A stretch of 62,325 nt of DNA, the filler included, from Squatina squatina (Eukaryota): the NCBI GenBank assembly GCA_031763465.1. It is 4 parts of 4 records of this genome, joined end to end, with 100 filler letters (N's around TTAATTAATTAA, not from the genome) between each part and the next. Parts side by side here need not be neighbours in the genome. Positions count along the whole stretch, not along the records: positions 1 to 18,636 come from JARFOE010313528.1; 3 more parts are not named here. One strand, given 5' to 3'. Each line of letters begins with the position of its first letter. Position 1 is the stretch's first letter. Below the pieces are notes generated by a model. That model saw only the letters and a program-made list of their open reading frames with translations. It made no database searches and had not been told where the DNA came from. A program made the position numbers and the translations under genes. Below, piece by piece: positions 1-48,392 of this stretch.

Positions 1-149
1 ATGCATGGCTGGCCGAGATGTGCAAACGGCATCGCTTTCAGGTAAATGCACCAAAATAAATGTTCATCCAGTACCGAGAGAGAAAAACCATAGAAAAGCC
101 CAGAAGGATGTGCTTCTGCGAGCAGAGAATAGTTTGGGACTAGTGTTGG

Positions 150-1080
150 TGTTGGAACTTCTGGAAGTGGTGTGCAGGGTGGGATTAGAACAAGTGCGAC
201 AGTTAATGGGAGAAAAATCCACGTTGTTAATGGAGGATATGGAATATTCACGGAATAGTTTGGAGGACAGAATGGACTGATTCACTAATGCAGTGACTGC
301 ATTGTGATTGTGTCAGTGCAAACTTCTGTACAATCTGGACTTTCAGCCTAAAGTTGTGCTCTTGTCCATCACTGTGTAATTGTGCAGAATAATCGTTCAT
401 TTGCAACAACGCAACGAATTTTTCTGACTGAAAATCATACCACATTTTTGCAGAACGAATCGGCGCATGGAATTCTTCTTAGTCTAAACGTTGCAGCTAG
501 TGACTCAACTTTCTCACACTTCTCAATCGCAATATTTTGCTCTTTCTCTGCCATGTCCTTCTGATCCCTCATTTCTCTCACAATGACATGTTGTTTTTTA
601 TATTTTTACTCCAAACTGTCACACTCCTTTCTGAGATGCTTTTTGGTATTGGAGTGAACGTGAACCACGTAAAACATTCCTGGTAATACTAGAACCTTGG
701 TTCCATCCTTCCCCGGGATCTGGGCTAACACACTCAGGGTTCTGCATTTCCCATGATATCACCAACTTTCAGAATTATCTCACCACGTTGCGTCGAATAG
801 GCATGTATATATTCGCGCAATTCCTCAATATTCGTCGAATTTACACTGTATGTGTCTATTTGACAAGAGATGGACAGTCACCAGGACTCTGCAGGAGCTT
901 GGACTATCACACAATCATGTTGCAGTCACTGCATTAGTGAATCAGTCCATTCTGCCTGAAGGATTTGCTTATTCCCTGAATCTTTCCTGTCCTCCATTAT
1001 CCACGTGCACTTTATCTGCTGTTAACTCTCGCAACTGTTCCAATCCCACCCTGCACACTGCTTCCAGAAATTCCAACATT
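150..1080. repeat. Diverged inverted repeat pair (arms ~150-330 and ~890-1080) around a ~560-bp spacer
   Basis: 268-301 (CAGAATGGACTGATTCACTAATGCAGTGACTGCA) is the exact reverse complement of 921-954. Looser similarity extends over ~180 bp (GTTGGAA.TTCTGGAAG..GTGTGCAGGGTGGGATT). Confidence 0.85.
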
Positions 1081-1159
1081 CCAGACATTGATGCTCTTAA
1101 ATATTCCTCGTCCTGTTACAACCTCAAATTATGTTGGGTTTCTGGGATAGTCAATTATA

Positions 1160-3135
1160 CATGGAAACATGGAGACATAGAAAATAGGAGCAGGGGTAGG
1201 CATTTTGGCACCTCGAGCCTGCTCTGCCATTCAACATGATGAAGGTTGATCCTTCCTCTCAACACCACTTTGCCGTGCTCCCTCCATCACTAAATGTCTT
1301 TAATATCTGGGAATCTATCCATCTCTGTCTTGACCATCCTCATTGAGTGAGCCTCCACAGCCTTAGTAGGTAGAGAATTCCAAAGATTCACCATCTTTCA
1401 TTGAAACGGTTACGTCTCACCTACATGCTGAATGGCTTACTCCTTACTCTGAGACTGTGACCCCCTGGTTCTGGACTCCTCAGCCACTGGAAACATCCTC
1501 CCTGCATCGAGCCTATCGAACCCTGTAAAATATCTATACGGTTCAATGACGCCGACTCCTTATCTTCTGAACACTAGATTATACCCAATCTGTCCTCTTA
1601 GGACAATCCAGACATCCAAAGACTCAGTCTGGTGAACCTTCGTTACACTCTCTCGCTGGCAAGTACATCATTTCTCAGGTCAGGACATCAAAACTATACA
1701 CAGTAATCCAGATGCGGTCTCACCAATGCCGGAAATAATTGAAGTAAGACATCCTTCCTCCTGTACTCAAATCCTCCTGTAATAAAGGTAAACATATCAT
1801 TCGCCTTCCTAACTGCCTGCTGAACTTGCATGTTAGGTTTCAGTGACTGGAGTATGTGGACTTCCAGATCCATTTGCACATCAATATTTCCTAACATATC
1901 ATCAATTATAAACTACTCTGCCTTTTGTTTTTCCAAACAAAGTGGACAACTTCAAGTTTTTTGACATTATACGGCATCTGTCATGTTTTTGCCCACTCGC
2001 TTAGCATGTCTATAATCGCCTGGAAGCCACTTTACATTTTCCTCACAGCTCACATTCACAACTAGCTCTGTGTCATCAGCAAACATGCTAATGTTATATT
2101 TGGTTGCATCATCTAAATCATTGATACTGATTGTGAATAGCTGGGGCCCAAGCACCGATCCCTGACGCACCCCACCAGTCAATGCCTATCAACCTGAAAC
2201 TAAACCATTTATTCCTACACTCTGTAGCCTGTTTTTTAACCAATCCTTAATCCATGCAAGTAAATTACTCCCAATCCCATGTGTTCTGATTTTGAGCACA
2301 AACCTTTTATGTGGGGCCTGATGGAAAGCGTTCTGGAAATCCAAATACACCACATCCACTTGTTCCCCCGTATCTACTCTGCTATTTAAATCCTCAAATA
2401 ACTCCAGGAAATTGGTCATACATGATTTCCCTTTCAGAAATCCATGTTGGCTCTTTCTCATCCTATTATTGTGATTTAACTGTCATGTTATTGCATTCTC
2501 TATAATCGTCTCCAGCATTTTCCCAACTACTGATATCAGGCTACCGGGTCTGTGATTCCCTGTTTTGTCTCTCCCAGCTTTCATAAATAGTGGGGTTACA
2601 CGTGCAACTCCCCAATCTGCAGGGGCCATTCCAGAATCTATGGAATGTTGGAACATGACAACCAATTCATCCACTATTTCTAGCGCCACCTCTTTCAGGA
2701 CCCTGGGATGTAGATTATCAGGTGGTGGGCACTTATCGAATTCCAGTACCTTTTTTTTAGGGTTAGGGTTACTAATTTCCTTCAGTTCTTCATTCTCACT
2801 AGACCCTTGGTTCTCTGGTATTTAGAGGAGGTTTTATCGTGTCTCCTTCCGTGAAGATAGATCCAAAGTATTCATTCAAATGCTCTGCCAGTTCCCTATT
2901 CACCATTATAAATTCTTCCGTCTCTGCCTGCAAGGGGCTCACACTTGTCTTCACTAATCTTTTCCATTTACACGCATGAAGAAAATGTTACAGTCCATTT
3001 TTATGTAGCTTGCTAGTTCAGTCTCCGAATCTATTTTCCATTTCTACATCAATTACTTGGTTCTCCTTTTCTGAATTCTAAACAGCTCCCAACTGCTTAT
3101 TGTTATTTCTGGCCATTTCATCTGACTCTTCCTGA
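1160..3135 (-). mobile_element. CR1-type LINE, 5'-truncated, decayed ORF2 reverse transcriptase
   Basis: ORF fragments QHGFLKGKSCMTNFLE, VYLDFQNAF, GVRQGSVLGPQLF, FADDTEL and LVRPHLDYCV. 3' tail (ACATAGAAA-like) at ~1160-1185. Confidence 0.95.
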
Positions 3136-3712
3136 TATTTAAACTGAATACAGGTTAGAGGATTCGGAACACTGATTATTATTTTTAACTTCACAAATAA
3201 TCCATTCACCTTTTACTTGCCCTGTCCATTGGACTGCTACCCAAAAGTATTCATGTGCAACAGACTCATCTGGTTTTGTTCGCATGTGGCGTTGCCTGCT
3301 TGCGTGAGTTTAAGTTGTTATTGGCAAAAGGTGTTTGACTGACTTGAATGAGTTTGTTGACAATGTTTATGAAGGTAATGCATTTGCTGTTGAGCTTAAG
3401 GACTTTCAAATGGCGTTTGATGAAGTCAAAAGTGCTGACAAATGCATGATAAGCCCGATTGCCTGATTCAGTGCTATATGATTACATGAATGGAATATTG
3501 GGTGTTGTAAGAGTATGGTCATGACAGCTCATGCTACCTCAGTCAAAGGCACAGAAGGATTTTGGTGTGTTGTATAACTTATCAGTTTTATTATATCTAC
3601 ATAATGTGATGCTATTATGTCAATGTGTGCTATGTCTGTTCAATACGTGAATGCTTCAGAATTCAATGAAATAGAACTGAGTTCACTTGGGGAAATTCTT
3701 AAATTCTTCTTA

Positions 3713-4596
3713 TCATTTAATAAATTTAACAATTCGAACAAATGGAAATTTCATCGGATTCTTCAACTGCTCGCTGAACTTACTCTGGGTCACAGCATAA
3801 ATACAAGTGTTAGTGCTGCCACTCAGGAGCTGGTGCATGAATCCTATTTTTTGTAGAAAAGAAGGGAGAAATATTGTATCATATCCTAAAAGTGACATCC
3901 GATTCCATATAGAAAACAAGGTAAACACCGCCCATTACAGAATGAAATTCCCCGAGATAACAAGCAGTAAGATTATGGATTTCCTTCATCGGCTGATCTC
4001 TGTCACTGAGAGTCTCCTCACTGCTGTGACTCCGGAGTCTACTGCGAGCTCTGCTGGCCAGCAAAATATGTCTGATAGTTAAAGCATTGAGCAGGAGAAT
4101 CAGGACAAATGGGATGCACGGTGTTACATTAAAATAAAGAAACTCAATTGCTGCTCACAAATCAGAAACCATAACAAAAACATTCACATAACAGAACCAG
4201 GGTGTATTGCTCAACCTGTACCAAGGTACATACATAAAGTGACAAAAATATTATTCAAACATCTCAGCACCGTCACTGTCCCGAGAAACCCAGCTGCAGT
4301 TTTCTCAGTGCAATATTTATTTTTCAACTTCAGACAGCAAATTGCCATAAATCGATCAATGGTGAAAGCGACGGTGAACCAGACAGAACAGTCTGTGAAT
4401 ACATAAAGCAGGACAGCGTGGAGATTACACTCGGGGATGACCACACATATCGTAGATGATAAGCAATAGGAATCTGCCGAAATATCGCTGATAATCACCA
4501 GTAGATCCGGCGCTGTCATGGCCACCAGGAAGCTAGTGACACGTTGGGGGAGACCGCAATTTCCCCGAGACAAGATCAAAATCGCCACTATGTTAA
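3713..4596 (-). pseudogene. GPR139-like class A GPCR pseudogene, exon 2 (TM1 end to C-terminus)
   Basis: Acceptor TTCCCTTCCTCACAG| then VNIVAILILSRGNCGL, LVAMTAPDLLVII, DCSVWFTVAFTIDRFMAICC, KYCTEKTAA, LLNALTIRHILLASRAR and LLSGSTNTCIYAVTQSKF. These lie in different frames, with a premature stop at 4211. Confidence 0.88.
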
Positions 4597-5202
4597 CTGT
4601 GAGGAAGGGAAATTAACAGACAGATTAACACAACGGGATGAGAGTGAAATGAGCCAGATGATGGAGTTGAGGTGAAATTTCAGCATCTGTCTCTTCTTTC
4701 AGTGATGCAGTTTAATAATATCCCTGAGAAAGGGCTTTTGATGCAGACACGATTTACAATGAAAGCTGTATAACTCACTAATCAATTCATGGATTGTGAA
4801 CTGAAACCGGGAATGGAACTTTGTAATAAAAGAGGAAAGTGCGATCGAGAATAAGCATCATGAGATCAATAAAGATGTGAAATTAGCTCTTCTGTTGCAA
4901 TTTGTTCAATCTTTGCCCAGGGTTGCAGGAATCCTGGAAACTTGGACAGTCGAGGATTCCGGTCCGAGCCTGTTCTCAATCTGCTTTTAACGTGGGACAA
5001 ACGGAATTTGCCAGAAATTTCTGTGAGGGTTCAGCTTAGTTTCAAATGAACCAGCATATTGTGTAGGGCAATCGGGAGAGTCACAGCCATTATAGGAGTG
5101 CGTCCAGGGCGAGTGAGTCAGTGAAAAGGGGAGAGAGTCAATAACTGGTGAAAGTGAGTCATTTCCTGCACAGAGTGAGTCAGTGATCGAGGACAGTGAG
5201 TT

Positions 5203-5290
5203 GAAACATAGAAACATAGAAAAAAAGGTGCAGTATAGGCCATTCGGCCCTTCGAGCCTGCACCGCCATTCAGTATGATAATGGCTGATC
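5203..5290 (-). mobile_element. Short CR1 3'-end fragment in the GPCR intron
   Basis: GAAACATAGAAACATAGAA...GGCCATTCGGCCCTTCGAGCCTGCACCGCCATTCA matches the CR1 tails at 17952 and 47050. Confidence 0.85.
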
Positions 5291-5984
5291 AGTAATGAGC
5301 AGAGAGAGCGAGTCTTTTATCCTTGTTATAGAATCTGGAAGATTATGATCACAATAAGCCCGAGGAACAAGATTGCGGATATTGGGTGAGTCTCGGTCAA
5401 AATGGTCTTTGATCCCCACTATGAAGAATGAAAGTCTCTGTGGGATCAGGGCCCCGAGAGAGTGGCTGTCTGAGGTGAGAAATGGACAACTATTTGACAT
5501 TTTAATAAGATTAATAAAGACGACACAAAACAGAACAATGTTTCCACTTTGGCTGAACTCCGAAATGTTACATCCACTGCAATTAACACGTTATTGAAAA
5601 TATTTTTGAAGTACTTTCCAGTCACAAATCTAAAATTAGTTCAAAAAACCTTGATTTGAAATTGTTCAGTAATATGATCAGCCATGCTTTGGGAAGGGCC
5701 CGCACTGAAAACAGTGAGTATTCCTTCTCTCCGCTGAAGCTCGGTCCATTTATAACAATTTATGTTGCTGTAAAGTGTATAACATCGAACCATTGGGCCA
5801 TTATCCATCCCGGATTAATGTAAAGGTGATCAGGTGTGGTGTATAACCGGCTTACATTTCGATTTGCTCTTTTACAACATCGCCCAAAATGCAAACTGTC
5901 CATTGCTGTGTGACTGGAGATTTTTCTGATTGTGCTTAATATGACATCAATTAAATTAGTCACTTTGGCTTTCCGAAAATCGCT

Positions 5985-6240
5985 GCATCCAACTAAATCA
6001 ACACTAACCTGGATTTCTGCATCTGTCGGTGAGATTTAATCACGTATGTGAACAACACTCCATCAGCATTTACCTGGAAGTCTATAGGTTTTGGTGAGAT
6101 TTAATTCAGTATCTGAACCCAAATCAATCTGCGCTAAAATGGAGTTATGTATCTGTCAGTGAGATTTAATTTAGTACCTGACCCCTACTCAATCAGTGCT
6201 AACAAGGAGTTCTGTAGGTGATGGTGGGATTTCATGTGCA
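5985..6240. repeat. Degenerate 65-bp tandem repeat, ~4 copies
   Basis: GTGAGATTTAA recurs at 6029, 6094 and 6159, and GTGGGATTTCA at 6224. Confidence 0.75.
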
Positions 6241-6800
6241 CTCCAATTGATTCAGGAAATTTGCATCAATAAACTGACCTCACGGATCATTGTTCTTAGT
6301 GACAATCAACAAGAATAATTTACATAGAGTTAGAGCAGTATATTGAAGACTGTTAGAAACGGTTTCAAGGAGAGATTCTACTGAGGTTTAGTTTATGGGC
6401 CCGGAGTGAAAGGACTTGTTTCAGTCACATATACATCATGGAAACAGATGGACACATCTGCTCAAAAGGATGCAAGTGCTCAATGCAGACCCAGACTCAA
6501 AATTCTTTTCAGAGCATCATCCAGTCACATTGTTTTTGTAGGAAATTTACAGAATATCCGTATAGCTAGCAGATGTGTACACATGGAGAATATAGTAAAA
6601 GGGGAGAATTCCTTCCCATTGCAGTCAGACCAGTGAACGGGTGAATTCGACCCAATCACCATGAGAACCATCGGAACATTATCAAACCCACAGTTACAGT
6701 GAAGGGCCGAGTTCAAGTAAATATCGTGGCCTGGATGAGAAACTAGAGGTACACTGCTAAGCATGATGTACAACATGTATTGGTGGATATATTGACTTAC

Positions 6801-6885
6801 CAGGCAGTCCGACAGCAGCGAAAATTGGGTAGTATATTTTTTCTATCGTACAAAAGACCTAAAATATGCGAAGCTCAAGAAACAT
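6801..6885 (-). pseudogene. GPR139-like GPCR pseudogene, coding exon 1
   Basis: Reads MFLELRIF*VFCTIEKIYYPIFAAVGLP followed by G|GTAAGT. The phase-1 donor joins exon 2 as G+TT (Val). In-frame TAG at 6859-6861. The start ATG is inferred. Confidence 0.82.
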
Positions 6886-7542
6886 TGCTCTCCTCTCGGT
6901 GGAGCCTCTGATTCCTGTTGGTGCCGGGGGTGATGCTCTCACTGACAGTGTGGTGCAACACATTGAACTGATTCCTGTATTAATAGAAGGGACAAACTCT
7001 AGAGCGACAGAATTAGTGTCCGTGGAGAGTGACGTGAATGCCAATCACTGAGCAAACACATTCAGTTCATCCCTGTAGACTGACGTGAATTAAAGTCACT
7101 GTACAAACACATTCAGTTAACCCCTTTCAAATCAAAACTCCTTACACCATTAAATATGTATAAGGAAATGTAACATGGCTGTACAGTCGAACTGCCCACA
7201 GACCTGAGAGGTATTTCAATACGGTTGGGTAAGGACAAACAATGTGAAACCTAGTGTCGGAGCACAAAGGTTGACACCATGATTTCTTGAAACTTGTCAT
7301 CCCCGTCGTGTCTCTCCTCTCATTTTCTCGATCACAATAAAAAGGACATTTCTGACAATATCAGTAATCCCTCCCCATCCACATCCCCCATTGATTTCCA
7401 TCCCTTCTTCTTACTGCGACCACACATCTGAATTAATCACTCCCAAAGTCAATTCCGACCGTCAAGGCCAGTCTGGTCCATTTTCACAAGATATTTCAAC
7501 AGATCTGGTCGTGCACTGCCAATTCCTCGCCTACATATTTGA

Positions 7543-9490
7543 TGTCAAGGAAAATATTAAAACCAGAGGAATGATATAATGTTGCCAGAAAATACCAGCA
7601 AGCCTGAGGTTTGGATAAGGGTTCGGTTTAGGGTTCAGCAAAGAAGGACAAAGAGATTCATTAAGCTAGGAATACAAAAACAGATTGCAAATGCTTCTTC
7701 AAATATGTAAAGATTAAAAGATTAGTGAGCAGAAATGTTGGTCCCTTACAGTCAGAAAAGGAGTAATATAAAATGAGGAACAAAAAAAATGTTGGAGCAA
7801 TTAAACACATACATTGAATCTGTCTTCACAAAGGAGGACATAAGTTACCGCCCAGAAATGTTAAGGAACCAAGGGCTTAATGAGAGCGAGGAACTGAAGG
7901 AAATCAGTATTAGTAGAAAAACAGAGCTGGGGAAAATAATGGGACTGAAAATCAACAAATACCCCGGGCCTGATAATCTACATCCCAGAGTACTAAACGA
8001 GCTGGCCATGGAAAGGGTGGGTGCATTGGTGGTCATCATGCAGAATTCTACAGACTCTGGATTGGTTTCTGGTGAGTGGCTCATATAACCACACTATTTT
8101 TAAAAAGGAGGGAGAGAGAAAATCGGGAATTTCACATCTGTTATTCTGAAATCAGTAGTGGGGAAAATGCTAGATTCTATCAAAGAGCACGTGATAACAG
8201 ACCACTTGCAAAGCATCAATGGGATTGGAAATAGTCAGCATGGATTTATGAACTGGAAGTCATGTTGACAAACCTACTGGAGTTTTTTTGACGAAGTAAC
8301 TTGTGGATTGGATAAGAGAGAACCAGTGGCTGTGATGCATTTTGATTTTAAGATGGCTTTTGATGAGGTCCCACGTAACAGGTTAGTAAGCAAAATTAAA
8401 GCAGAGGGGATTGGGAGTAATATACTGGCATCGATTGATAGCTGGTTGACGGACAGGAAACAGAGTAGGAATAAAGGGTTATTTTCGTGTGGCGGGTGGT
8501 GACTAGTGCAGGATTCGGTGCTTTTGACCCAGCTGTTCACAATATATATTTATGGCTTGGATAGGGGAAACTAATGTAGTATGTATAAATTTGTAGATGA
8601 CACAAAATTAGGGGGAAGGTGCGTTGTGAGAAGGAAGCAAAAAGGCTTCAATGCGATCTAGACAAGTTGAGTTAGTCGGCTATTACATGGCAGTTGCAGT
8701 ATAACGTGCATAAATGTGAGGTTATCAATATTGATTGCAAAAAGAGAAAGGCAGATTATTATCTCAATGGTGATAGATTGGGAAATGGGAAGGTGCAAGG
8801 AGACCACGGTGTCTTTGGACAGCAGTCACTAAAAGAAAACATACAGGTGCACCAAGCTGATAGGAAGGCAAATGCTATGTTGGCCTTCATTGCGAGAGGA
8901 TTTCAGTACAGGAGAAAGGACAAGTTACTGCAATTATATGGAGCCTTGGTGTGGCCACACCTGGACTTTTGTGTGTAGTTTTGGTCCCCTTATCTGAGGA
9001 AGGATATTCTTGCATTAAGGTTCACCAGCCTGATTCCTGGCATGACAGAACTGACGTAAGAGGAGAGATTAGGGCGATAAGACCTGTATTCACTAGAGTT
9101 GATATGAATGAGAGGGTACCTCATTGAACGTTATACAATTCTGACAGGACTCTACAGCATGCCACTGACTAGGGAGCCTAGCAGAGGTAAAAAAAACTTC
9201 AGGATACGGGGCATGCTATTTATGACTGTGATGAGGAGAAATTTGTTCACTCAAAGAGCGGTGAACCTTTGACTCCTTACCACAAAGGCCTTGGCGGCCA
9301 AGTCACTAAATATATTTCAGAAAGAAGTGGGTATATTTCGTGACACTAAAGGGATTAAGGGACATGTGGAGAAAGCGAGACCATGGTATTGAGTTAAATG
9401 ATCAGCCATGATCATACTGAATGGTGGAGGTGGCCCGAAAGTAAATGGCCTACTCCTGCTCCGATGTTCTGTGTTTCTATGTTTCTATGT
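7543..9490 (+). mobile_element. CR1-type LINE, 5'-truncated, decayed ORF2
   Basis: ESVFTKED, PGPDNLHPRVL, DFKMAFDEVP and LYGALVWPHLDFCV. 3' tail TTTCTATGTTTCTATGT at ~9475-9490. Confidence 0.95.
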
Positions 9491-12173
9491 CCTTGTTCCC
9501 AGCAAAACGCTTACCCATTCCTAAAATAGCTGTTTCCCTATCTATGCATCTGATTCTAGCTGCCGTAGATCCAATGTAAATATTTGAACCTATCTGACCA
9601 ACAACTGTTTTTGCCATTCACCACAAATTCTGTCTCGCCTCCTCAAGCCCTCTCCAGTCCTGCTTCCCTTTGACATAATTGTGCCAGTATTGTGGAATGT
9701 AGCCCGAGGCTTCTTTTTTTTTTAACTGACGACCATATCGTTAAATAGCTCTGCCCAGTGCCTTCAACACACACCTCCAACAACTCCAAGAAACTGGGGG
9801 ATATTTGTTCAGTGATAATGAAAGTATCTATTCACATTCTTTTGCCCCTTCTCCTTCCCCAACTCCAACATGGAAAACTCCCCCCTCCCGCGCTCTAACT
9901 CCGAATTATAATATTTCTCTAGATTCCCTCATATACCCTCTGATGCCCTTCCAGATCTCATGGTATCCAAGAGACAAACTTGCTTCGTTTTGAAACTATT
10001 CCCAACATACTGTGACATTACAAGTTCACTTCCTGCTCCGTATTTTAACTATCCATTTCAAGAAAAGACCCACCATCACCACGACGATTTCCCGGTTGAA
10101 GGGAAAGCCTCCTTCAGCTCAAGTCCCTCCCACTTAAAGGATGGGCCCAGCATTAAGTTAAGGCCTGCCAGTTTAAAGAGAAAGCCCGTAAGCTCCCCCA
10201 CAGTTAAAAAGAAGTTTCCTGTCACCTCAAGGCACGCCCTGTTAAGGAGAACGCCCTGCATCACCTCAAGGCCCGCCTTTTCAAAGGGAACGCTCACATT
10301 AAACTCAAGGAATGCCCGGTGTTAGCCTTTTTGGGACTGTCTATTCAGTCGTTTAACATTGGCATTTTATACGTTATCGTTATATGGCTTCATTTGGCAT
10401 AATAAAGAATTAATACATTACAGTCTTCAGGCAGTAGTCAATGTAGTGAATTTGAGTATTTTTAACAGTTCAGTCCATTAGGTGGAAGACAACACTCAAT
10501 CCCCATAATTGCGAATTACTAACACATGTTGACCTGTCTGTTAACCTCCGTGGATCTTCGACACTGAGTGAGAAACAAAGCCTCTTGGGCAGACCCCAGA
10601 AACGGAACTGTTGAAAAATCCATCCAACCAGAGCAATTGGCCGCGGGCCTGCCAAGTCTGTCTTTCTCCACTAGCTTTTCCTGTTTCCTGTTCCTACATT
10701 TGATGATGAACTCTGTGGATGTTGAAGGCAACAAGAGTTCCAACTGCAAATAAAACATAGGTCCAACATGATTATGTCCCCTAATTTTCAAAACGGAGAA
10801 AGAAAACTAAAGTTATAAAACTGTAGGCGAGCAAAAATAAGACTACTCTGCAATGTAGATAAAGGTAATGCTGAAGAATTGTAACAGGGTATTACAATTG
10901 ATTATACTTCACAATAACAGAAGTTCACAGTGGACCTATCCACGATCAATTAGAGATATGAGAGAACTATATATATATAGCTTCAATTCTCAAACTGTTT
11001 CCCCCTCCCTTCCAGCAATAATAAGAATGAGCGTGGCCGTCAATCGTGTTCCACTTTCCAAAAGTCAGCCTGAGTGTGCAAATGCCATCCTATTTTGCAG
11101 AAAAGCAGTTCTAGCCAATTGATACCCTATTCTGAAACAAGTATATATAGACGATGAACATTTGGTATAATCTCATATGTCTAAAGGTCCTGTTTTTTTT
11201 AATGTAATTGTTGATTTTGATGCTGCAAGAAATGATGAAATGTTTAAAATTTGCTCATTCCAAGGACGCTTTAAGGTTTCAAGTGTCAGGGCACATTTTA
11301 GCTGACTGTGCTGTTTAGCTTTTGCTGAATTTGAGGCTGTGCGATTTGCTTCTGGCGACTTATTTTTAGGCCACTCTGTGACACGAAATTGTCAAGGAAG
11401 TCTTGAGATAGGAGGTGCGACCATGGAGCTCAGCATGATTCGTTATCGTCCTAAATGTTACACAAGTAGATATGAGGAGTTTTGAGTAGATAACAAATTT
11501 CAGGATGTCTTTTCACAATATCACTTGCCATGCTGAAATGAATCAGCAAGGGCAATATACGTGAAAGGAGGCCGAGAATGATATTTAGCTCTCTTAACCA
11601 GTCGCAGAGAGGGTGAACATTGATAGTATGGACAAAGGTTACAAGCCTATCCAGTGAAAGTCTGATAACATTGTTTATTTCTCTCTATATCTACTGTTGA
11701 TCACACTTCAGCAAGTAACAAAAGTTACTGTGGGCCTCGACTTGGTCAAAAACAATTAACATATATTTTGTTGAAAGCATATTTGGTGTTCGATAATAGC
11801 GGCTTACATACTTGGTGACCTCGGCGGGGTCGAACCAGAAACTGACCTCATTGTTTGATACCAAGTGCCTTGGGACAATCAGCAATTGTGAAGTCGATTT
11901 CGTTCTGGTGGGTAATTGTGTCGGTGGGTATCTGGGTTTATCTCTACAGAATTTCGAGTAATCATGGCAACTGTCAGGGAAGTTCTTCAAAAGAGGTTTA
12001 TTGATATAGCTGGGAGTGAGAGGCTGGTCATCGTAATGACAAACAGGATGAGCAAAATGTGATGGTGAAGACACATAGAGATGGCATGGTGAATAGAAAA
12101 AGATCAGAGTAAAAGCAGCGAAACATTTTCTAAGATAGAGGGCTCACTATTGCACACAGGTAAGTGAAAATAA

Positions 12174-13553
12174 GGGCCCTGAAATTGTGATCTCCCCGTC
12201 TGGGAACGATGTCGGTTATGGGGCTGTTCACCATAAGCCCGCATAACTGGCATTTGCGGTCTGTCAAGAATCATCTTGACAGATGAGACGTTCAGCTGCA
12301 CAGCTGATCCCAGCGCTGAGTTTTGAAATACATTTGCAAAATTTTTGCTGAGGATCTCTTTCAAGTTGCTTCATACCTGTTAAAATCGAGCGTCTCTGCT
12401 TGGTTTTACCTGCGTAAGAAATGTTAAGAAGCTTTTAATCAAGAAATTAATGGACATTATTTAAAACCATGTAAACCCAACATGGCCTCGAAATTGCGAT
12501 CGGAGGCTTCCTGTGTGTGAACTTATCTAAAGCTACTGGATCCACAGGACCATGCGATATTCAGCCCCCACCCTAGTTGGGGATTCAGAGTGGGGCTATC
12601 GACTTTCCCGGGCAATCCAACGAAGCGGCTGGGTCGTCCCATGGGAGAGTCGAGCCAATCAGATAGGTGCATTTTGTCATTGAACTTTTTGCAGTTCAAA
12701 GCGATCTGCCAAGAACTGTCAAACGTTAAATAAAAGATGAAAACAACACTAATACATCCCAAAACATTTTTAAAACTATCATAACATGAAAATGTAATAA
12801 AAAGGAGAAAAATAACAAACCTTTGTTTTTTACCTTTTAAAAACTTACTTAACTCACTATGTATGGTTTTAAAGTAATGCCAATTTATTTTTTTTGAATT
12901 AAAACATTTTAACCTTTCTTACACTGGTAAAACCAAGCAGATACTCTTGGTTTTACCGTGCGTAAAAAAATTGAAGAAATCCCCAGCTGAAAATTTGGCT
13001 AAAATATCGCAAAACTCAGGTCTATGGATGGACTTCGCAGCAGCAGCGATGGATCTGCCCAGAAGATTCTTACCATGTAGAGCCCCATTCCCGGCTTTTG
13101 CGATGTCTCCTCATGTGTGTGGGAACATCCTTCACACCTGGGGAGATCGCAATTTCAGGTCCCTATGCTTTTTAAACATTTTAAGTTTTGTTTGAAGATT
13201 TCAAACAATGTGTTATTTAGCCTTATAAAATTTTAATGTTGTAAATAGTTTTACTGTTTTGTATTGTTTTTCATCTTTCATTGAACTTTTGCCAGATCTT
13301 GACAGAGCACTGAGAGCTGTCAAAAGGCCAATGAAAAATATACCTACCTGATTGGCTGGGGCATCCCACCTGACGTCTCCAACCCCTTGGCTCAAATTCC
13401 CCGGGAATCTACAGAGCCGCACTCTGAATGTCCAAATTGGTGGGGCTGAACATAAAATGGTTGCGTCGATTCAGGCTCATTAGGTAAGAACGGAACTTTT
13501 TTTGCAACTGGACGCATCCACAAGCAGGAAGCCTCCAATCGCAATTTCAGGGC
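12174..13553 (+). mobile_element. Non-autonomous DNA transposon (MITE-like), outer copy
   Basis: Terminal inverted repeats GGGCCCTGAAATTGTGAT ... ATCGCAATTTCAGGGC. The body matches the uninterrupted copy at 42798-43523. Confidence 0.85.
12484..13163 (-). mobile_element. Same MITE family, nested in reverse orientation inside the outer copy
   Basis: Starts GGCCTCGAAATTGCGATCGGAGGCTTCCTG (reverse complement of the outer right end) and ends GGGAGATCGCAATTTCAGGTCCC (reverse complement of the outer left end). Confidence 0.85.
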
Positions 13554-14784
13554 TGAAGTTATTGTTCTGTTATAACAGAAAGAGCAGAGTGAGACGACAC
13601 ATCAGCAACGATTGTCGGATACATCGGTTATGCTGGCTCAGTGAAAACTGGCAGCTACCACCGCTCTACCACATGGGAGTCTGCAGGATCTATGTGAACT
13701 GGATAATTCACAAACAGAGAGCGGCAAATTAACCAAGCCTCAGAAGATCTGTACAGCATCCTGAGCTTGGGAACCAGCCAATTAAGTCGGTGGATCACAA
13801 CTGATGTGAATTAAATATTTATGAACAGTAGGGACCTCTGTATAAACAGGGTTAGGATCTCTAATGTCACTTACAGCAATAGTCTGGACAGAAAAGACGG
13901 GTACCAGAAGAATGATGCAAATTGGGATATTTTGAACTGAGAAGTTATATTCAACCATGATCCATGGTGAGATGAGTGGTGGTCTGGGAAAGTGCTGCCA
14001 GTGGCCAACATTGTGACCACTACTCGACATAATGCAAACTGAGCAGGCAATACTCGCATCTACGATGATATATGTTTGTTGGCTCAAGGTATTGGTGCAC
14101 TGTTACCCGAGATAAGGATGGTAAATGATGGGTATCACCTGGTTGATGTCCAGAGGTGTTATGCAGCCATTGTGTGGTTTCACAAGGCATTGAATGGTGC
14201 GGAATATAAGGTCCTTCCGGCTGCTTGTGAGCCAGGAATGCATTCCTCTTTCAAACCTTACATCCACCATCCAGCAACGAAACCAGCAGAATACACAATA
14301 GATATTATGCAGTGACTGGTTATGGCAAGATGGCGGCCTGAGGAAGGTGAGTAGCCTGGCCCGTCCTGCAGGAGCCTGAGAAGCCCAGCCCAGGGCGCAT
14401 TTCATAAAACGCTGCACTTAATACAACTTCAGTGTTGGCATTGCTGTCAAAAGCTGCTTTTTAATATAATGTTAATATTGTATAATATAAATGAGGAGAG
14501 GGGATGCGATGGAGTGGGTGTGAGAGGACTTGAGGGATTGAGTTAACGGGAGTATCTCTGTCTGTATGTGTGTGCTTGTTTGTGTGTTTATGTGTGTCTG
14601 CATAGGTCCATCCAGCAGAACCTGGTCTCCAATTGTCTTGAGTCTCCTTTCCATTGGGCCAAGAATTTGCTCTTTCAACATCTTGTGGTAGCTGCTGTGC
14701 AACGACCACCTCACATCAAATTCTTTCACGCACTGGTATTTTACATCAATCAATATGAAGTTTTGCACCTAGTACTTCAGTCCC

Positions 14785-17700
14785 CTCATGGCTAACCTCA
14801 ATAGCGACAGATCTGAAAGGTGCACCGCTGTCATAGGCCTGGAAGTCAGATGATTCGACATTGACATTGATGCCCGAACAGGAGAAGGTGGTGCATACAC
14901 CTTCAACTGGCAAGGAAGGCCAGAAAAAGAACGCTGTCTCGATGGTTTGGGAATTGCCATCGAAAGTTAGATAATTAGTTGTCTAAGTGAGTGGACATTT
15001 AGGGTAAACGAATGTCTCATGACCGGAACAATGACGCTATGGAATCATTATGCTATGGTCGTAAGTGTGTACGCCCCAACCCTAGAAGCTATGGGCGAGA
15101 CCAACGAAGAATTCTAATCAAGCCTTGAACAATCCTTGACCTGAGTTCCAACGGGAGATAAGCTGATCCTCCTGGAGAAATCAATGTCTGAGTTGCAAAG
15201 GACGCAACTCTCTGGAAAGGTGTGTTTGACAGGGAAGGAGTTGGGAAAGCAAACTCCAACGGAGCCCTCCTCCTGGTGACATGCTTAGAACATGGTCTTG
15301 TCATAACCAACACACTGTTTAATCAGAGAGATAAATACAAGTCCTCATGGCAAAACGCTCGGGCCAGGCATTGACGCCTATTGGACTACATCATAGTCCG
15401 ATTGAGGAACCGCGTGGATGTCTGCATCACGTGTGCCAGAACAGGGGTCACTGACTGGGTAGCGACCACCGCCTAATCCATTGGGTTATTTCCATCAACC
15501 TAGCTCCAAAACTGCAGCAGCAAGAGAAACGCTGTCACAGAAAGATCAACGTCCTAGGCCACAAATACCCTGCAAAGAGAATCCAATTCAGTCAATTCCT
15601 CACAGCCAGCCTGACTGTCCCAATGAACCGGAGCTGCAGAGAGTCCACATTGCCTGGTCTACCCTTAATACAACAATATTCACACTTGGGAAGAGATTCT
15701 TTGTTTTACTGCCAGAAAACATCAAGACTGGTGTGATGAGAATGACCAGGTGATCCAGCGGCTACTGACCGTTAATGCAAGGTGTGCTTGAATTGGAAAA
15801 ACCATCACAACTGGAGAGAAATAAATCAGTTCGACAGACAACTGAAGGTCGAGGTCCAACACATAACTCGCGCTCCAAAAAAAGATGGGGTTTGGTAACG
15901 GCGCAGGAGATCCAACAACTAACCAACAACCATGACCTGCGTGGATTCTTTAGCGCAGCCAACACCGGCTATGGCTCAGACAGCCAGGGATATTCCTCGC
16001 TGAGAGCTAAGAATGGAAACGTGCTCATGGAGACAGAGAGACATTCAGCGCCCTGTGGAAGGAGCACTTTGAATAACTCCGCAACCAAGGCTCAGTCTTC
16101 AACATGAGTGGTCTTGATTTCAATACACAGCAAGCTACCCACCACGATCAGGGCACAACCCTTGCTGGTCATTCGGATGAAAAGGCCAACAAACAGCTGC
16201 AAAACGACAATGCCTCAGGAGCAGATGAAGTCCCCGCCAAAGTATAAAAGCATGCCAGAGAAGTACTATTGTCGCGAATCTATAACCTCATCTCCCTTAT
16301 CTTGAAGGAGGAAAGCATGACAGCGAATCTCAGAGTCGTCAAAATCAAGACCATCATCAAAAAACGAGGCAAGTCTTCATGTGTTAATTATAGAGGGGTC
16401 TCTCTGCTGTTTGTCACAAGATACCTTATGATATGAAGCCTCCTGAACTGGCTCTTTCCATTGAGTGAAGTGCTCCTCTCAGGGTCATAATGCAGATTCT
16501 GCCCATTCAGATGTGCAACAGACATGACCTTCACTGGGTGACAAGTCCAAGCGAAATGTGGACAGCAGCATTAACTTCTATACATGGACTGCTTTGACCG
16601 TGAGGGATCCTTGTCTGTCCTTCTCAAATTAGTCTGCTCTCAAAATTCGTCACCACCCGACTATGACAAGTGAGACGTGGTCTTCTCCAATGAATCCATC
16701 ACAGACACAACAGAAGTGCAGACTGGAGTCACTCAAATCTGTGTCATGGCAACAATTGTTTTCTTAATCTTCCGTTCTGTAACACTTAACCTCAACTCTA
16801 ACAACTGCCCTGCTTGATTCGATTTAAACTAGAGGACGAAAGGAAAGTTGATCAAACTCCATTTCCTCCTCTCCAGAAGCAATAACACTCCAACCTCTGT
16901 TATTGAGTTGCGGGATGCAGACGACACTTGCATGTGGGCAGACCCTGAGGCTGAGATCCAATCCTCCCAGAGTAACAAAGCATATTCTGCCCATTAAGAA
17001 GGACAATGGACACGATCTTTACCAGGCAACAATTCAAAGAAAAATGTAGGGAGCAGCATTAAGCTCTGCATGTGGCCTTCTTTGACCTAACCAAGTCCTT
17101 CGAATATTTCAACCGTGAGCGATGATAGAGTCTCCTCTAACTTGGCTGCCCTCAGAATTTTTCACAAAACTTTGCTTGCTCCAGGATAAAGAGTTGTGAT
17201 CCTTACCAACCCATCCACCTCCTGGCCAATCTAGGTGCAAACTGAGGTTCAACAAGCCTGCGTCATCGCACCAATGCTCTTCTCAATGTTCCTTTCTGTA
17301 ACACATCAACTCACCTCGAACAAGCTCATCGCTGGATTGGATTTCATGAACAGGGCGAGCGGGAAATTATTCAATCTTCATCCTCTTCAGTGAAGAATCA
17401 CGACCACATCAACCTCTGTCATCGAGTTGCAGAAGGCAGTCGACGCTTGCGTGTGTGCACACTCGGAGGCAGAGTCCCAAATCATATTGATTCCTTCACT
17501 GAACAGTACAAGAGAATGGGCATTACGTTAAACCTCGGAAAGTCAAAGGTTCTTCAACAACCTGCCCCTGCCTCACAACAACGCCCAACGAATAGCAACA
17601 ACCATGACAAGATCTTGGACAATATTGATCAGTTTCCATATCTTGGGAGCATTCTCTCAGTAATGGCGAACATCGATGACGGAATCCAACACCGCCTCCA

Positions 17701-17951
17701 GTGTGCCAGTACAGCCTTTGGCCACCTGAGGAAAAGAGTGTTCGAAGATCAAGACCTCAAACCGGGCACAAAGTTCATGGTCTAACGTGCAGCAGTGATA
17801 ATCACCGTGTGTATGCAGTGGAGACTTGGACAATGTATAGTGCACACCACAAAACACTAGAGAATTACCAACAACATTGCTTCCTCAAAATTCTGCACAT
17901 ACACTTGCAGGTTAGGTGCAGCAACTTCAGTGGGTTCGCTTCAGCCAACAT
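14785..17951 (+). mobile_element. RTE-clade LINE, decayed endonuclease and RT, with the RT core present twice
   Basis: Decayed N-terminal endonuclease segments (NSDRSERCTA, VSVYAPT, NSNGALLL, LVITNT, LLDYII) and RT C-terminal motifs (FPYLGSIL, RLQCASTAFGHLRKRVF, ETWT). Cut at the right by a CR1. Confidence 0.88.
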
Positions 17952-18636
17952 CATAGAAACATAGAAACATAGAAAACAGGTGCAGGAGTAGACCATTCGG
18001 CGCTTTGAGCCTGCACCGCCATTCAATATGATCATGGCTGATCATCCAACTCAGTAGCCTGTAGCTGCTTTCTCTCCATATCCCCTGATCCCTTTAGCCA
18101 CAAGGCCCACAACTAACTCCCTCTTAAATATAGCCAATGAACTAGCCTCAACAATTTCCTGTGGCAGAGAATTCCACAGATTCACCACTCGCTGTGTGAA
18201 GAAATTTTTCCTCATCTCGGTCCAAAAAGACATCCCCCTTATCCTTAACTGTGACCACTGGTTCTGGACTTCCCCAACATCGGGAACAATTTTCCTGCAT
18301 CTAGCCTGTCCAACCCATTAAGAATTTTACATGTTTCTGTAAGATCCCACCTCAATCTTCTAAATTCGAGCGAATATAAGCCCAGTCGATCCAATTTTTC
18401 TTCATATGAAAGTCCTGCCATCCCAGGGAACAATCTGGTGAACCTTCTCTGTGCTGCCTCTATGGCAAGAATGTCTTTCCTCAGATTAGGAGAAAAAAAC
18501 TGTACACAATACTCCAGGTGTGGTCTCACCAAGGCCCTGTACAACTGCAGTAGAACCTACCTGCTCCTATACTCAAATCCTCTTGCTATGAATGCTAACA
18601 TACCATTCGCTTTCTTCACTGCCTGCTGCACCTGCA
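17952..18636 (-). mobile_element. Young CR1 LINE 3' end, truncated by the scaffold end
   Basis: YRALVRPHLEYCVQF, QRRFTRL and FFTQRVVNLWNSLP, with a (CATAGAAA)n tail. Confidence 0.95.
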
Positions 18637-18736
18637 NNNNNNNNNNNNNNNNNNNNNNNNNNNNNNNNNNNNNNNNNNNNTTAATTAATTAANNNNNNNN
18701 NNNNNNNNNNNNNNNNNNNNNNNNNNNNNNNNNNNN
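18637..18736. other. Artificial scaffold-concatenation linker
   Basis: N44-TTAATTAATTAA-N44 (stops in all six frames), identical at three positions. Confidence 0.95.
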
Positions 18737-18829: not shown

Positions 18830-18941
18830 GTGACAGAAGACCCAGTGGAAATCATTGAATCTCGGGCGGAGGTTCGCTCTTTTGAAAGATCTGACGATGT
18901 GATCAAATTGATCGGATATTTTAAAAGTGGAGTTTCTGAAC
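18830..18941 (+). CDS. CASQ2: Calsequestrin internal exon (equivalent to human exon 4)
   Basis: TTTTTTTTGTCAACAG| [37 protein letters not shown] |GTGAGT, 112 bp. Matches calsequestrin EDPVE..KLIG.FKS. CASQ2 rather than CASQ1 is inferred from adjacency to VANGL1. Confidence 0.88.
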
Positions 18942-20637: not shown

Positions 20638-20692
20638 GAGGACGACATGGATGGGATCCAAATTGTTGCTTTTGCTGAAGAAGAAGATCCTG
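20638..20692 (+). CDS. CASQ2: Calsequestrin internal exon (equivalent to human exon 8)
   Basis: TTTTTTCTTCTGTATAG| EDDMDGIQIVAFAEEEDP+G |GTAATT, 55 bp. Matches calsequestrin EDD..GI.IVAFAE..DP. Confidence 0.88.
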
Positions 20693-33011: not shown

Positions 33012-33111
33012 NNNNNNNNNNNNNNNNNNNNNNNNNNNNNNNNNNNNNNNNNNNNTTAATTAATTAANNNNNNNNNNNNNNNNNNNNNNNNNNNNNNNNN
33101 NNNNNNNNNNN
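33012..33111. other. Artificial scaffold-concatenation linker
   Basis: N44-TTAATTAATTAA-N44. Confidence 0.95.
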
Positions 33112-35869: not shown

Positions 35870-36260
35870 CAACAACAACGTGCATTCGCAGAATACCTTC
35901 AACATCGAAAAATATCCCAAGGCACTTCCCGGTACCTTATTCGGAAAGAACATGGGCACTAAACAAAAGGAGATCGAAGGAGGGTGAAAACAAAAGGTTG
36001 GCGAAAGAGTGTGTTTTAAGCAGTATCCTAAAGGAGGAGCGGGAAGTGGAGAGGCTTAGCTGGGGAATGGCAGAGCAGAGATCTGAAGAGACTGCAGCCA
36101 TAGACGAGTTGAGGAAAGGGTGAAATGCACAACAAGCCAGAGTTGATGAATGGAGTGTTCACAGCGCTGGGGTCTTGTGGTACTGGAAGAGGTTGGAGAG
36201 AGAGGGAGAGACAAGGCGACGAAAGCATTTTAGCACAAGGAAGAGCACATTTGATTGTAA
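35870..36260 (-). mobile_element. Old L2 LINE 3' remnant
   Basis: AACAACAACGTGCATT tail, followed by TAAAGGAGGAGCGGGAAGTGGAGAGGC. Confidence 0.6.
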
Positions 36261-36266
36261 ACACTA

Positions 36267-36990
36267 ATGATGGGACTCATCTACCTGTTGACAATTTCAG
36301 TAATTACTTTTTATGCAAATATTGGTGATGGACCCTCTCACCTATTGGTAATTTCAGTAATTACATTTTATATAAAGATTGGCGATGGGCCCCCCTACCT
36401 GCTGGTAATTTCAGTAATTACATTTTATATAAAGATTGGCGATGGTCCCCCCTACCTGCTGGTAATTTCAGTAATTACATTTTATATAAAGATTGGCGAT
36501 GGGCCCCCCGACCTGCTGGTAATTTCAGTAATTACATTTTATATAAAGATTGGTGATGGGCCCCTCTACCTGTTGGTAATTTCAGTAGTTACATTTTATA
36601 TAAAGATTGGTGATGGGCCCCCCTACCTGCTGGTAATTTCAGTAATTACCTTTTATATAAAGATTGGTGATGGGCCCCTCTACCTGTTGGTAATTTCAGT
36701 AATTACATTTTATATAAAGATTGGTGATGGGCTCTCCTACCTGCTGGTAATTTCAGTAGTTACATTTTATATAAAGATTGGTGATGGGCCCTCCTACCTG
36801 CTGGTAATTTCAGTAATTACATTTTATTTAAACATTGGCGATGTGTCCTCCTACCGGTTGGTAATTCCAGGAATTACTTTTTTGTGTAAAGATTGGTGAT
36901 GGAACCTCCTACCTGTTGATGATTTCAGTCATTACATTTTATATAAAGAATTGTGATGCTCCTTTTTACCTGTTCGTAATTTCAGTAGTT
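36267..36990. repeat. 57-bp minisatellite, ~12.5 copies
   Basis: Unit GGTGATGGGCCCCTCTACCTGYTGGTAATTTCAGTAATTACATTTTATATAAAGATT, starting at 36381, 36438, 36495, 36552 and so on. Confidence 0.97.
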
Positions 36991-38125: not shown

Positions 38126-38547
38126 GTAGTAATAAATATCCCCACCCTGGTATAGATGTGTCTGAAGAGAAACTGTTTGAGGACAGATTGTGCTGGCAAT
38201 TTCTAGGGGAACATCACGATTGTTACACTCTCTCTCATTTCCTTCTTACTTTAACTAGGATAAAAGATTCACTCTGATGGGAGGCACAGCCTGAAGAGGA
38301 GGCCACAAACATCGCCCAGTACTGGTCTTCCTTTGAGGTCCCCCACAATAAATCTTCCATTTCTTCCTTATTTCAATCTTTCGTTAGTTTAAGCTGTGAG
38401 CTTTATATTGCAACAAAACATTGATGCCAATAAGTCTATGTCAGTAATTTTACTGTCAAATGAACAGTGTGGGTAATTGTGGTGTTTAAAGCGATAGAAG
38501 TAGGTGTAGTACTGATACAGATATTTTGTCTGGTGGGAGTATCCAGA

Positions 38548-39600
38548 TTCACAGTGCAACTGCAACCTGCCAGTTGTATGTAAGGATTCACAGTGTATCA
38601 GGATCCTGCCAGGTGTGTCTGGGGTTTCACAGTGTATCAGGATCCTGCCAGGTGTGTCTGGGGTTTCACAGTGTATCAGGATCCTGCCTAGTGTGTCTGG
38701 GGTTTACACAGTGTATCAGGATCCTGCCAGTTGTATGTGAGGATTCACAGTGTATCAGGATCCTGCCAGGTGTGTCTGGGGTTTACACAGTGTATCAGGA
38801 TCCTGCCAGTTGTACATGGGGCTTCATAGTTTTTCAGGAACCAACCAGGAATGTCGGGAGTTTCAAAGAGTATCAGGATCCTGCCAGGTGTGTATGGGGT
38901 TTAACAGTGTGTGTGGATTTTTCCAGGATTGTCTGGAGTTTCACAGTGTATCAGGATCCTGCGGTGTGTGTACGGGGTTTCACAGCGTACCAAGGTTCTG
39001 CCAGGTATGTAAGGGGTTTCACAGTTTATCAGGAGGCTGCCCAGTGTTTTTGGTGTTATACAGCATACCAGGAACATGCAAGGTTTTTATGGGCTTTCGC
39101 AGTGTATCACGTTCCTGCCAGTTGTGTCTGCAGTTTCAGTGTCTCAGGATCCTGCCGCGCGTGTGTGGGTTTTCACAGTATATCAGGATCTTGCCTGGTG
39201 TGTCTGGGGTTCCTCAGTGTATCAGGAACCTGCCAGGTGTGTCTGCGGTTTCACAGTGTAACAGTATCATGCCTTATATGCATGGGGTTCCACACTGTAT
39301 CAGGATGCTGCCAGGAGTGTCTGAGCTTTCACAGTATATCAGGATCCTGTCGTCTGTGTATAGTGCCTCACAGTATATCAGGATCCTGCCAGGTGTGTAT
39401 GGGCTTTCACAGGATGTCAGGATCCTCCCTCGTGTTCATGGCCTTTCACTGATTTTCAGGATCGAACCAGGAATGTCTGCATGTTCACAGTGTCTCGGGA
39501 ACCCGCCTCCATTGTATGGAGTTTCACAGTGTATCAGGATCCTGTGAGCAGTGTATCGGGTTTCAAACTCTATCAGGTTCCATCCAGGTGTGTATGGGTT
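38548..39600. repeat. 39-bp tandem repeat, left arm (~27 units)
   Basis: Unit CAGTGTATCAGGATCCTGCCAGGTGTGTCTGGGGTTTCA (38591, 38630, ...), more diverged towards the right. Confidence 0.95.
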
Positions 39601-39602
39601 TT

Positions 39603-39735
39603 GATAGATTTCTGGATATTAAAGACATCAGGAAAATGACGTGAGGTAGAAGATCAGCCATGATGTAGTTGAATGGCAGAGCAGGCTCGAGGGGCCGAAT
39701 GGCCTTCTCCTGCCCTTATTTCTTATGTTCTTATT
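39603..39735 (+). mobile_element. CR1 3' tail inserted into the tandem array
   Basis: GATCAGCCATGAT...GAATGGCAGAGCAGGCTCGAGGGGCCGAATGGCCT...TTTCTTATGTTCTTAT. Confidence 0.88.
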
Positions 39736-39746
39736 TTCGTACGTTA

Positions 39747-40590
39747 TCAGTGTATCAGAATCCTACCAGGAGTGTCTGGAGTTTCACAGTGTCTCTGGAT
39801 CCTGCCAGGTGTCTCTGGGGTTTCAGTGTCTCTGGATCCTGCCAGGTGTCTCTGGGGTTTCAGTGTCTCGGGATACTGCCAGGTGTCTCTGGGGTTTCAG
39901 TGTCTTTGGATTCTCCAGGTGTCTCTGTGGTTTCAGTGTCTCTGGGGTTTCACAGTGTATCAGAATCCTGCCAGGTGTCTCTGGGGTTTCAGTGTCTCTG
40001 GATACTGCCAGGTGTCTCTGCGGTTTCAGTGTCTCTGGATCCTGTCAGGTGTCTCTGGGGTTTCAGTGTCTCTGGATCCTGCCAGGTGTCTCCGGGGTTT
40101 CAGTGTCTCTGGATCCTGCCAGGTGTCTCTGGGGTTTCACAATGTCCCTGGATCCTGCCAGGTGTCTCTGGGGTTTCAGTGTCTCTGGGGTTTCACAGTG
40201 TCTCTGAGGTTTCAGTGTCTCTGGTGTTTCACAATGTCTCTGCATCCTGCCAGGTGTCTCTGGGGTTTCAGTGTCTTTGGATCCTGCCAGGTGTCTCTGG
40301 GGTTTCACAGTGTCCCTGGATCCTGCCAGATGTCTCTGGGGTTTCAGTGTCTCTGGGGTTTCAGTGTCTATGGGGTTTCACAGTTTCTCTGCATCATGCC
40401 AGGTGTGTCTGGGGTTTCACAGTGTCTCTGGATCCTGCCAGGTGTGTCTGGGGTTTCACAGTGTCTCTGGATCCTGCCAGGTGTGTCTGGGGTTTCACAG
40501 TGTCTCGGGATACTGCCAGGTGTGTCTGGGGTTTCAGTGTCTCTGGATCCTGCCAAGTGTGTCTGTGGTTTCAGTGTATCAGATCATGCT
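39747..40590. repeat. 37/39-bp tandem repeat, right arm (variant unit)
   Basis: Unit CAGTGTCTCTGGATCCTGCCAGGTGTCTCTGGGGTTT(CA), with interspersed half-units. Confidence 0.95.
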
Positions 40591-40639
40591 AGATGTTTGT
40601 GTGACAATACCACCAATTAAGATTTTCTCCTGCACTGCA

Positions 40640-42760: not shown

Positions 42761-42797
42761 AGTTCAACTTCCGCTAATATTAAGAGCAATATCTAAT

Positions 42798-43523
42798 GTC
42801 CCTAAAATTGCAATCTCCCTGGGTGGGAACGATGTTCCCACGCACCAGGGTAGAAATCGCAAAAGCCTGTTATGGGCCTGTTCATCGTACACCTGTATAA
42901 CTGGCATAAACTTCTGGACAGATCCAACGCTGAGGCTGCGAAGCCCATCCCAAGTGCTGAGATTTGAGACATTTTTGCAATACTTGCACTGGGGATCTCT
43001 TCAAAAATTTTTTACACATGGTAAAACCGAACAGATCTCCTTGGCTTTACCACTGTAATAAATGTTAAATTTTAATTCAAAAAAATTAATGAGACATTAC
43101 TTTAAAAACATACTGGGAATGGTTTGAAACATTAAAAGATCGGTTATTAAATTTCAAAAAGTGTTATTTATCTCCCTTTTTATTGAATTTTCATGTTAGA
43201 ATAGTTTTTAAAATGTTGTGATGTTTGTTTTTCATCTTTTATTGAAGTTTTAACAGTTCTTTACAGATCGCTGTGAACTTTCAAAACTTCAATAAAATAT
43301 ACACCTACCTGATTGGCTGGGGGCTCCCACGTGGCCTCTCCAGACTCTTAGATTGACTTGCCCGGGAAACAAGAGAGCCCCGCTCCGAATTTCCAACTGC
43401 GGGGGGAGGCGGTGTGGCTGAAGATCAAACTCCCGTGGATCCAGGATGCTTAGGTAAGTGTGTAACCTTTTTGTGATTGGAGGCATCCGCACGCAGGAAG
43501 CCTCCAATCGCAATTTCAGGGCC
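42798..43523 (+). mobile_element. Full-length ~725-bp MITE of the same family as 12174-13553
   Basis: Ends GTCCCTAAAATTGCAATCTCCC and GCAGGAAGCCTCCAATCGCAATTTCAGGGCC. Shares the internal ACCTACCTGATTGGCTGGGG. Confidence 0.85.
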
Positions 43524-48292: not shown

Positions 48293-48392
48293 NNNNNNNN
48301 NNNNNNNNNNNNNNNNNNNNNNNNNNNNNNNNNNNNTTAATTAATTAANNNNNNNNNNNNNNNNNNNNNNNNNNNNNNNNNNNNNNNNNNNN
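48293..48392. other. Artificial scaffold-concatenation linker
   Basis: N44-TTAATTAATTAA-N44. Confidence 0.95.

Follow-up and report, generated by a model that had tools for sequence, protein, structure and literature searches.

A decayed reading frame bounded by splice-site sequences in the genome of Squatina squatina

Two exon-like blocks and a nested insert

We analysed a 62,325-nt window (the whole stretch of DNA studied here) from Squatina squatina (assembly GCA_031763465.1), which carries a decayed reading frame, hereafter the fossil frame, within positions 1–18636 (JARFOE010313528.1), a part free of gaps. Translation of three plus-strand segments gave a frame of 632 codons, running through 11027–11596 (five TGA and one TAA), 11598–12158 (seven TGA and two TAA) and 13581–14345 (six TGA and two TAA). 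The internal stops were thus 18 TGA, five TAA and no TAG, and six intact CGA codons remained. One frame change lies near 11597, although its exact place is not uniquely fixed; a second plus-strand frame is also stop-poor at approximately 11600–11950, and the frame there is likewise not uniquely fixed. A possible start codon (ATG, 11027–11029) lies 11 nt inside the first of the two blocks described below, and a plus-strand TAG at 14352–14354 would end the frame if the last donor were read through. An earlier sequence-only reading of this DNA had described a continuous protein-like frame of this kind, seen by reading through the stops, with the same stop counts, the frameshift near 11597 and remaining CGA codons, as well as a 127-residue antisense frame in register with it, and both descriptions were reproduced. 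The antisense frame (11691–12143, minus strand) was open for 150 codons from stop to stop, the 127 residues being counted from a GTG at 12074, and is likely to be a by-product of coding bias.

We scored splice sites with a simple vertebrate matrix over 3235 GT and 3931 AG sites on the plus strand. The strong acceptor that had been reported to end at 11015 was confirmed: a polypyrimidine tract followed by AG (10996–11015) ranked 7th of 3931 and opens an exon-like block of 1144 nt (block A, 11016–12159), in which the decayed frame is broken by 15 internal stops and, near 11597, by at least one frameshift. Block A is followed directly by a consensus donor, GTAAGT (12160–12165), the highest scoring of all 3235. 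The same frame resumes in a second exon-like block of 768 nt, or 256 codons (block B, 13579–14346), which contains eight internal stops, needs no frameshift, is preceded by an acceptor-like sequence (13556–13578; rank 75 of 3931) and is followed by the second-ranked donor, GTGAGT (14347–14352). All four sites, on the plus strand throughout, fall in phase 1 of the fossil frame, and joining the blocks across the intervening DNA keeps the frame. The two top donors sit 14 nt before the insert and 8 nt before the frame end, and the chance of ranks 1 and 2 falling exactly at the block ends was 2e-7 by a rough post-hoc estimate. Neither of these two donors, nor the acceptor ending at 13578, had been described in the earlier reading. 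Its description of the gene as intronless was not supported, and a two-block spliced gene, its frame bounded by splice-site sequences, is the likely structure.

The putative intron (12160–13578, plus strand) consists almost entirely of miniature inverted-repeat transposable element (MITE) sequence. An outer element (12174–13555, plus strand), MITE-like and ending in short terminal inverted repeats, matched a free copy at 42794–43524 in the same orientation, with 69–81% identity in pieces, and a second member of the same family is nested inside it in inverted orientation (12485–13164, minus strand), with 12521–13159 matching 43459–42801 at 72%. The family is approximately 730 bp long with long internal inverted arms. 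Without the MITEs, the intron shrinks to ~37 nt (34–39 nt depending on where the MITE ends are drawn), with a GC content of 0.24 against 0.40 and 0.45 in the blocks, and it holds stops.

Outside the blocks, no downstream coding exon was identified after 14346, where there are weak acceptors at 14371 and 14605. Upstream, a candidate phase-1 donor at 10864 would give a 151-nt intron, and a TATATA run (10968–10979) lies ~40 nt from the start of block A; either a promoter or an additional exon may make up the 5′ end. No AATAAA or ATTAAA polyadenylation signal was present in 14341–15100, and no terminal repeats, target duplication or flanking repeat longer than 14 nt were found around the region.

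Coding signal and stop pattern

The frame was compared with dinucleotide shuffles given the same freedom (any start frame and one frameshift). On the best path TAA and TAG together numbered five against 12.9±2.2 in shuffles, with 1 of 1000 shuffles at or below this value, and all stops numbered 21 against 27.7±3.2 (32/1000, with one free frameshift). In block B, with the frame fixed, two TAA or TAG codons were seen where 7.2 were expected (34/2000 shuffles). Base use also varied with codon position (chi-square p=0.001), with G at 30% in position 1 and 21% in position 3. None of these shuffle and codon-position values is corrected for picking the region out of 62 kb. By composition score, the inferred frame beat the other five in each of the three segments. 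A stop-blind amino-acid score gave 1.5 for block A against –5.7±3.5 in shuffles and 12.0 for block B against 2.2±3.4 (1/60 shuffles for each), and the MITE and upstream DNA, used as controls, remained at shuffle level. The same test gave no lift to two fossils of the same contig described below, a G-protein-coupled receptor (GPCR) pseudogene (34/60) and a CR1-like long interspersed nuclear element (LINE) (8/60), and is therefore conservative. When the whole 62 kb was scanned, the highest-scoring stretches of 190 codons in blocks B and A came only 10th and 20th among the top windows. Taken together, we consider that the region was very probably once protein-coding.

The sequence-only reading had called for the stop types to be compared with shuffled sequence and with the other frames. 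TAA and TAG numbered five in frame against 22 and 19 in the other plus-strand frames (Fisher p=0.019), whereas the 18 in-frame TGA codons were no excess over the 16 and 26 of those frames. The signal is thus a loss of TAA and TAG and not a gain of TGA over the other frames. Since TAA and TAG were depleted and TGA was not, ordinary sites have diverged only moderately, while TGA was gained freely. Deamination of methylated CpG is an established route from CGA to TGA, and the excess of TpG and CpA (observed/expected 1.33 and 1.41, with CpG at 0.51), together with the TAA/TAG loss, makes the pattern compatible with this route, as had been proposed. The route requires that at least 24 of the 632 codons were originally of one CpG-bearing type, as TGA and CGA together make up 24/632 (3.8%), and CGA use in vertebrate genes is ~0.6%, several times lower. 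In the LINE and GPCR fossils that share this contig, read in approximate frames, best-path TGA counts were below the shuffle means (10 vs 15.8, 4 vs 8.9 and 3 vs 5.0), whereas those of the fossil frame were not (11 vs 7.1 and 6 vs 5.4).

Search for relatives and genomic surroundings

All homology searches were run with stops read as X. Neither Pfam nor NCBIfam returned a family for any of the three segments, and a single PHROGs match at E=0.097 was rejected. Word-index protein searches were blank for block B (longer proteins) and for the first half of block A (longer and near). A phmmer search of 11598–14351, whose query included the intron, translated in frame, but not 11027–11596, gave no match at E≤0.001 among 1,835,955,588 representatives, which argues against a close intact relative provided that fish proteomes are in the library. 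Two PDB sequence searches were blank, and a third gave a single match, to baculovirus AC142, at chance level (E=1.5). Viral contigs were blank for all three segments, metagenome and prokaryote contigs and phages were blank for block B, the only query used there, and Rfam was blank over 9400–15100. Single-sequence AlphaFold2 models failed (pLDDT 30.2 and 32.6), and a viral fold search with the 30.2 model, which was too poor to inform, found nothing at E≤0.001. As a control for decayed sequence, Pfam recognized only one of four LINE-like fossil fragments, showing that its power here is low. A search of the published literature by title found nothing on this locus; tables of endogenous viral elements (EVEs) in survey supplements were outside its scope. 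Within that limited power, the protein and family searches support the remark of the sequence-only reading that no reverse transcriptase, DDE transposase or host-protein motif is recognizable. The viral origin that it had thought plausible gained no match in viral searches, whose power on decayed sequence is limited.

Several more specific relationships were rejected. Blocks A and B are not internal duplicates (best E=5.5). They are not exons of calsequestrin, as the exon at 18830 lies beyond a gap, starts in phase 0 and gave no match, and the splice sites and absent family match speak against the frame being ORF1 of the LINE that lies downstream. A partner gene further upstream (9480–11015) was also dismissed, with shuffle-level scores (9–29 of 60) and blank Pfam and atlas searches. 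A supposed likeness between the bases ahead of the ATG and either orthomyxovirus termini or the late promoter of a baculovirus was set aside, the motifs being too short to carry meaning.

The locus is contiguous with host DNA: it lies among the GPCR pseudogene and the two LINE fossils, in one gap-free stretch with them (1–18636), and it carries a host MITE. Neither a second copy of the fossil region in the window nor a neighbouring replication or capsid gene was found. The GPCR pseudogene is a two-exon member of the rhodopsin family with frameshifts (6858–3782, minus strand; Pfam 7tm_1 E=0.0013), which we take to be GPR139-like. The CR1-like LINE fossil was recognized by Pfam RVT_1. A second LINE fossil, judged RTE-like by eye, occupies 15000–17900 and has an internal tandem duplication of ~500 bp (16474–16961 vs 16962–17480). 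A degenerate 39-nt repeat of approximately five units, open on both strands, lies at 10090–10330, 700 nt upstream of the fossil; it scored at shuffle level, its atlas search was blank, and it could be a minisatellite or belong to one element with the fossil.

Elsewhere in the window, calsequestrin exons were seen at 18830–18941 (Pfam E=3.5e-10) and 20638–20692 (by eye), whereas exons between and around them were not seen and probably fall in gaps; since the exon at 18830 sits past a gap from the fossil, its linkage to the fossil is uncertain. On the minus strand, 61866–61726 is a candidate exon of a MOSC-domain gene, a lead only, as its atlas score of 0.95 has low recognition value, and 32149–32032 is an open candidate exon with strong splice sites and protein-like content. 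The longest open frames of the window come from minisatellite arrays at 36159–36956 (57-nt units) and 38546–40600 (37/39-nt units). The runs of N at 18637–18736, 33012–33111 and 48293–48392, each around a 12-nt TTAA-repeat marker, were read as join artefacts, and genes across them may not be linked.

Possible origins of the fossil gene

Intron-containing genes occur in nuclear DNA viruses (parvovirus, polyomavirus and adomavirus) and in DNA transposons (Zisupton and Harbinger). The fossil shares with such genes a compact layout, a short intron, strong consensus donors and no avoidance of CpG, but it has no helicase, transposase, recombinase or capsid match, no termini, no second gene and no second copy in the window. 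With unitary pseudogenes it shares phase-symmetric exons, intact GT/AG sites and many disabling changes, although no intact paralogue or orthologue was found in protein searches and its codon use looks non-vertebrate. The features of a retroposed EVE or processed retrocopy were absent, as there are four phase-1 splice sites, no polyadenylation signal and no long flanking repeat, whereas the frame-compatible exon–intron structure expected of a host gene was found, as judged from sequence alone. According to two surveys (PMC11089739 and PMC11521997), hepadnavirus, paramyxovirus and benyvirus-like EVEs are present in cartilaginous fish. Like the non-retroviral vertebrate EVEs described there, the fossil is one decayed coding sequence amid host repeats, interrupted by stops and a frameshift, but those elements are defined by likeness to known virus proteins, whereas the fossil has no detected match and has exon-like boundaries. 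The afrotherian EBLNs are reported to be EVEs that became spliced yet stay intact (PMC4982594), and the fossil is likewise a possibly foreign coding sequence with host-type donors and acceptors; EBLNs, however, keep an open frame under selection and a recognizable bornavirus N, whereas the fossil has 23 stops and no known source. Thus the fossil works like a decayed EVE or pseudogene but cannot be filed in any named family.

We tentatively favour, at somewhat short of an even chance, a decayed spliced gene that reached the genome as DNA and whose source was a nuclear DNA virus or mobile element, compact, CpG-rich and without a sequenced relative. A foreign rather than host source is suggested because no homologue was found, TGA and CGA together reach 3.8%, TGA does not fall below the shuffle mean and the residual intron is only ~37 nt, which is short for a vertebrate gene. 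Entry as DNA is suggested because the splice signals were kept and no AATAAA or ATTAAA follows the frame in 14341–15100. A CpG-tolerant, compact gene of at least 640 codons would have entered the germ line and been transcribed by host polymerase II, and its transcript spliced at the acceptor ending at 11015, across the short intron after 12159 and at a further donor after 14346, to give a protein of at least 640 residues. Methylation and then loss of constraint would have followed insertion, with methyl-CpG deamination producing most of the TGA stops and ordinary substitutions only the five TAA. One MITE would then have inserted into the short intron, and another copy later into that MITE. The locus most likely makes no protein today. 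A narrower form, in which the gene comes from an extinct or unsampled nuclear DNA virus or mobile-element lineage of cartilaginous fishes whose family is absent from the 1.8 billion representatives, is doubtful.

Several points weigh against the favoured origin. With no homologue at all, the attribution to a viral or mobile source draws on codon use and on absence, and the splicing is predicted from sequence signals. In-frame TGN codons number 46 but CAN codons only 38, a count near the normal share of His plus Gln, and thus simple symmetric CpG decay fits poorly. The present CpG ratio of 0.51 is no higher than that of the LINE fossil (0.55), GPCR pseudogene (0.62) or MITE (0.65), and the CpG-rich source gene assumed earlier therefore stays an inference. 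Neither terminal repeats nor a target duplication were seen around the region, the window shows no other copy of it, and no replication or capsid gene was found next to it. Host genes typically show symmetric phase-1 exons and long polypyrimidine tracts, the intron could have exceeded its present residue before the MITEs landed, and the TGA comparison with neighbouring fossils used approximate frames for the controls.

The same host-like features bring in the unlikely possibility that both blocks are exons from the interior of a lineage-specific host gene that died, a unitary pseudogene whose other exons were lost or lie hidden in assembly gaps. Its symmetric 1-1 blocks with vertebrate-consensus splice signals, the open donor after 14346, the possible phase-1 donor at 10864, the many N gaps in the scaffold and the presence of another dead host gene, the GPCR, on the same contig all suit this origin. 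However, an intact fish relative should have scored very high in the phmmer or word-index searches if the library covers such proteomes, and none appeared; the TGA plus CGA share is high for a host gene, exons of 1144 and 768 nt around a 37-nt residual intron are unusual, and no further exon was identified. More improbable is the idea of an intronless non-retroviral virus gene copied into the genome, its frame interrupted by the MITE, with splice-like sites that are due to chance or arose later to skip the insert. The ATG at 11027 and the TAG at 14352 do bracket the frame, the 34–39-nt residue could be a multiple of three, EVEs can gain splice sites (PMC4982594) and non-retroviral EVEs are known in cartilaginous fish (PMC11089739 and PMC11521997). 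Against this, the two best donors lie exactly at the block ends (post-hoc 2e-7) with all sites in phase 1, the residue is AT-rich and holds stops, and there is no polyadenylation signal, terminal duplication or viral match.

Two further readings dispense with an ordinary decayed gene. Under the first, the region consists of non-coding exons (long non-coding RNA or untranslated region) or reflects chance, and the frame comes from the choice of path; this would fit the absence of a homologue and of a confident fold (pLDDT 30.2 and 32.6), the modest depletion of total stops (32/1000) and the 10th and 20th ranks of blocks B and A in the window. This is very unlikely in view of the TAA and TAG depletion (1/1000, and 34/2000 in fixed-frame block B), the codon-position bias (p=0.001), the first place of the inferred frame among six in all three segments, the stop-blind scores (1/60 per block, with MITE and upstream controls at shuffle level) and the whole number of codons in block B. 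A source organism that read TGA as an amino acid, so that most of the 'stops' were original, would explain why in-frame TGA is at chance level while TAA and TAG are depleted and CAN shows no matching excess. The protein would then have to contain 4.9% Trp or 5.2% Cys, where the usual shares are far lower; the spliceosomal signals exclude bacteria and mitochondria, and block B, the part searched, had no match in prokaryote genomes or metagenomes. We regard this reading as very improbable.

Published surveys of EVEs are confined to elements that look like known viruses. A fossil of ~630 codons without a detected relative, found through stop-codon bias and splice-site phase, offers a homology-free route to lost protein families, although its weight is limited, as it is a single dead locus with no assigned function. 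If the gene was viral or mobile, it would be a record of an unsampled lineage, a palaeovirus trace invisible to homology-based EVE screens; if it belonged to the host, it would represent a lost vertebrate gene family.

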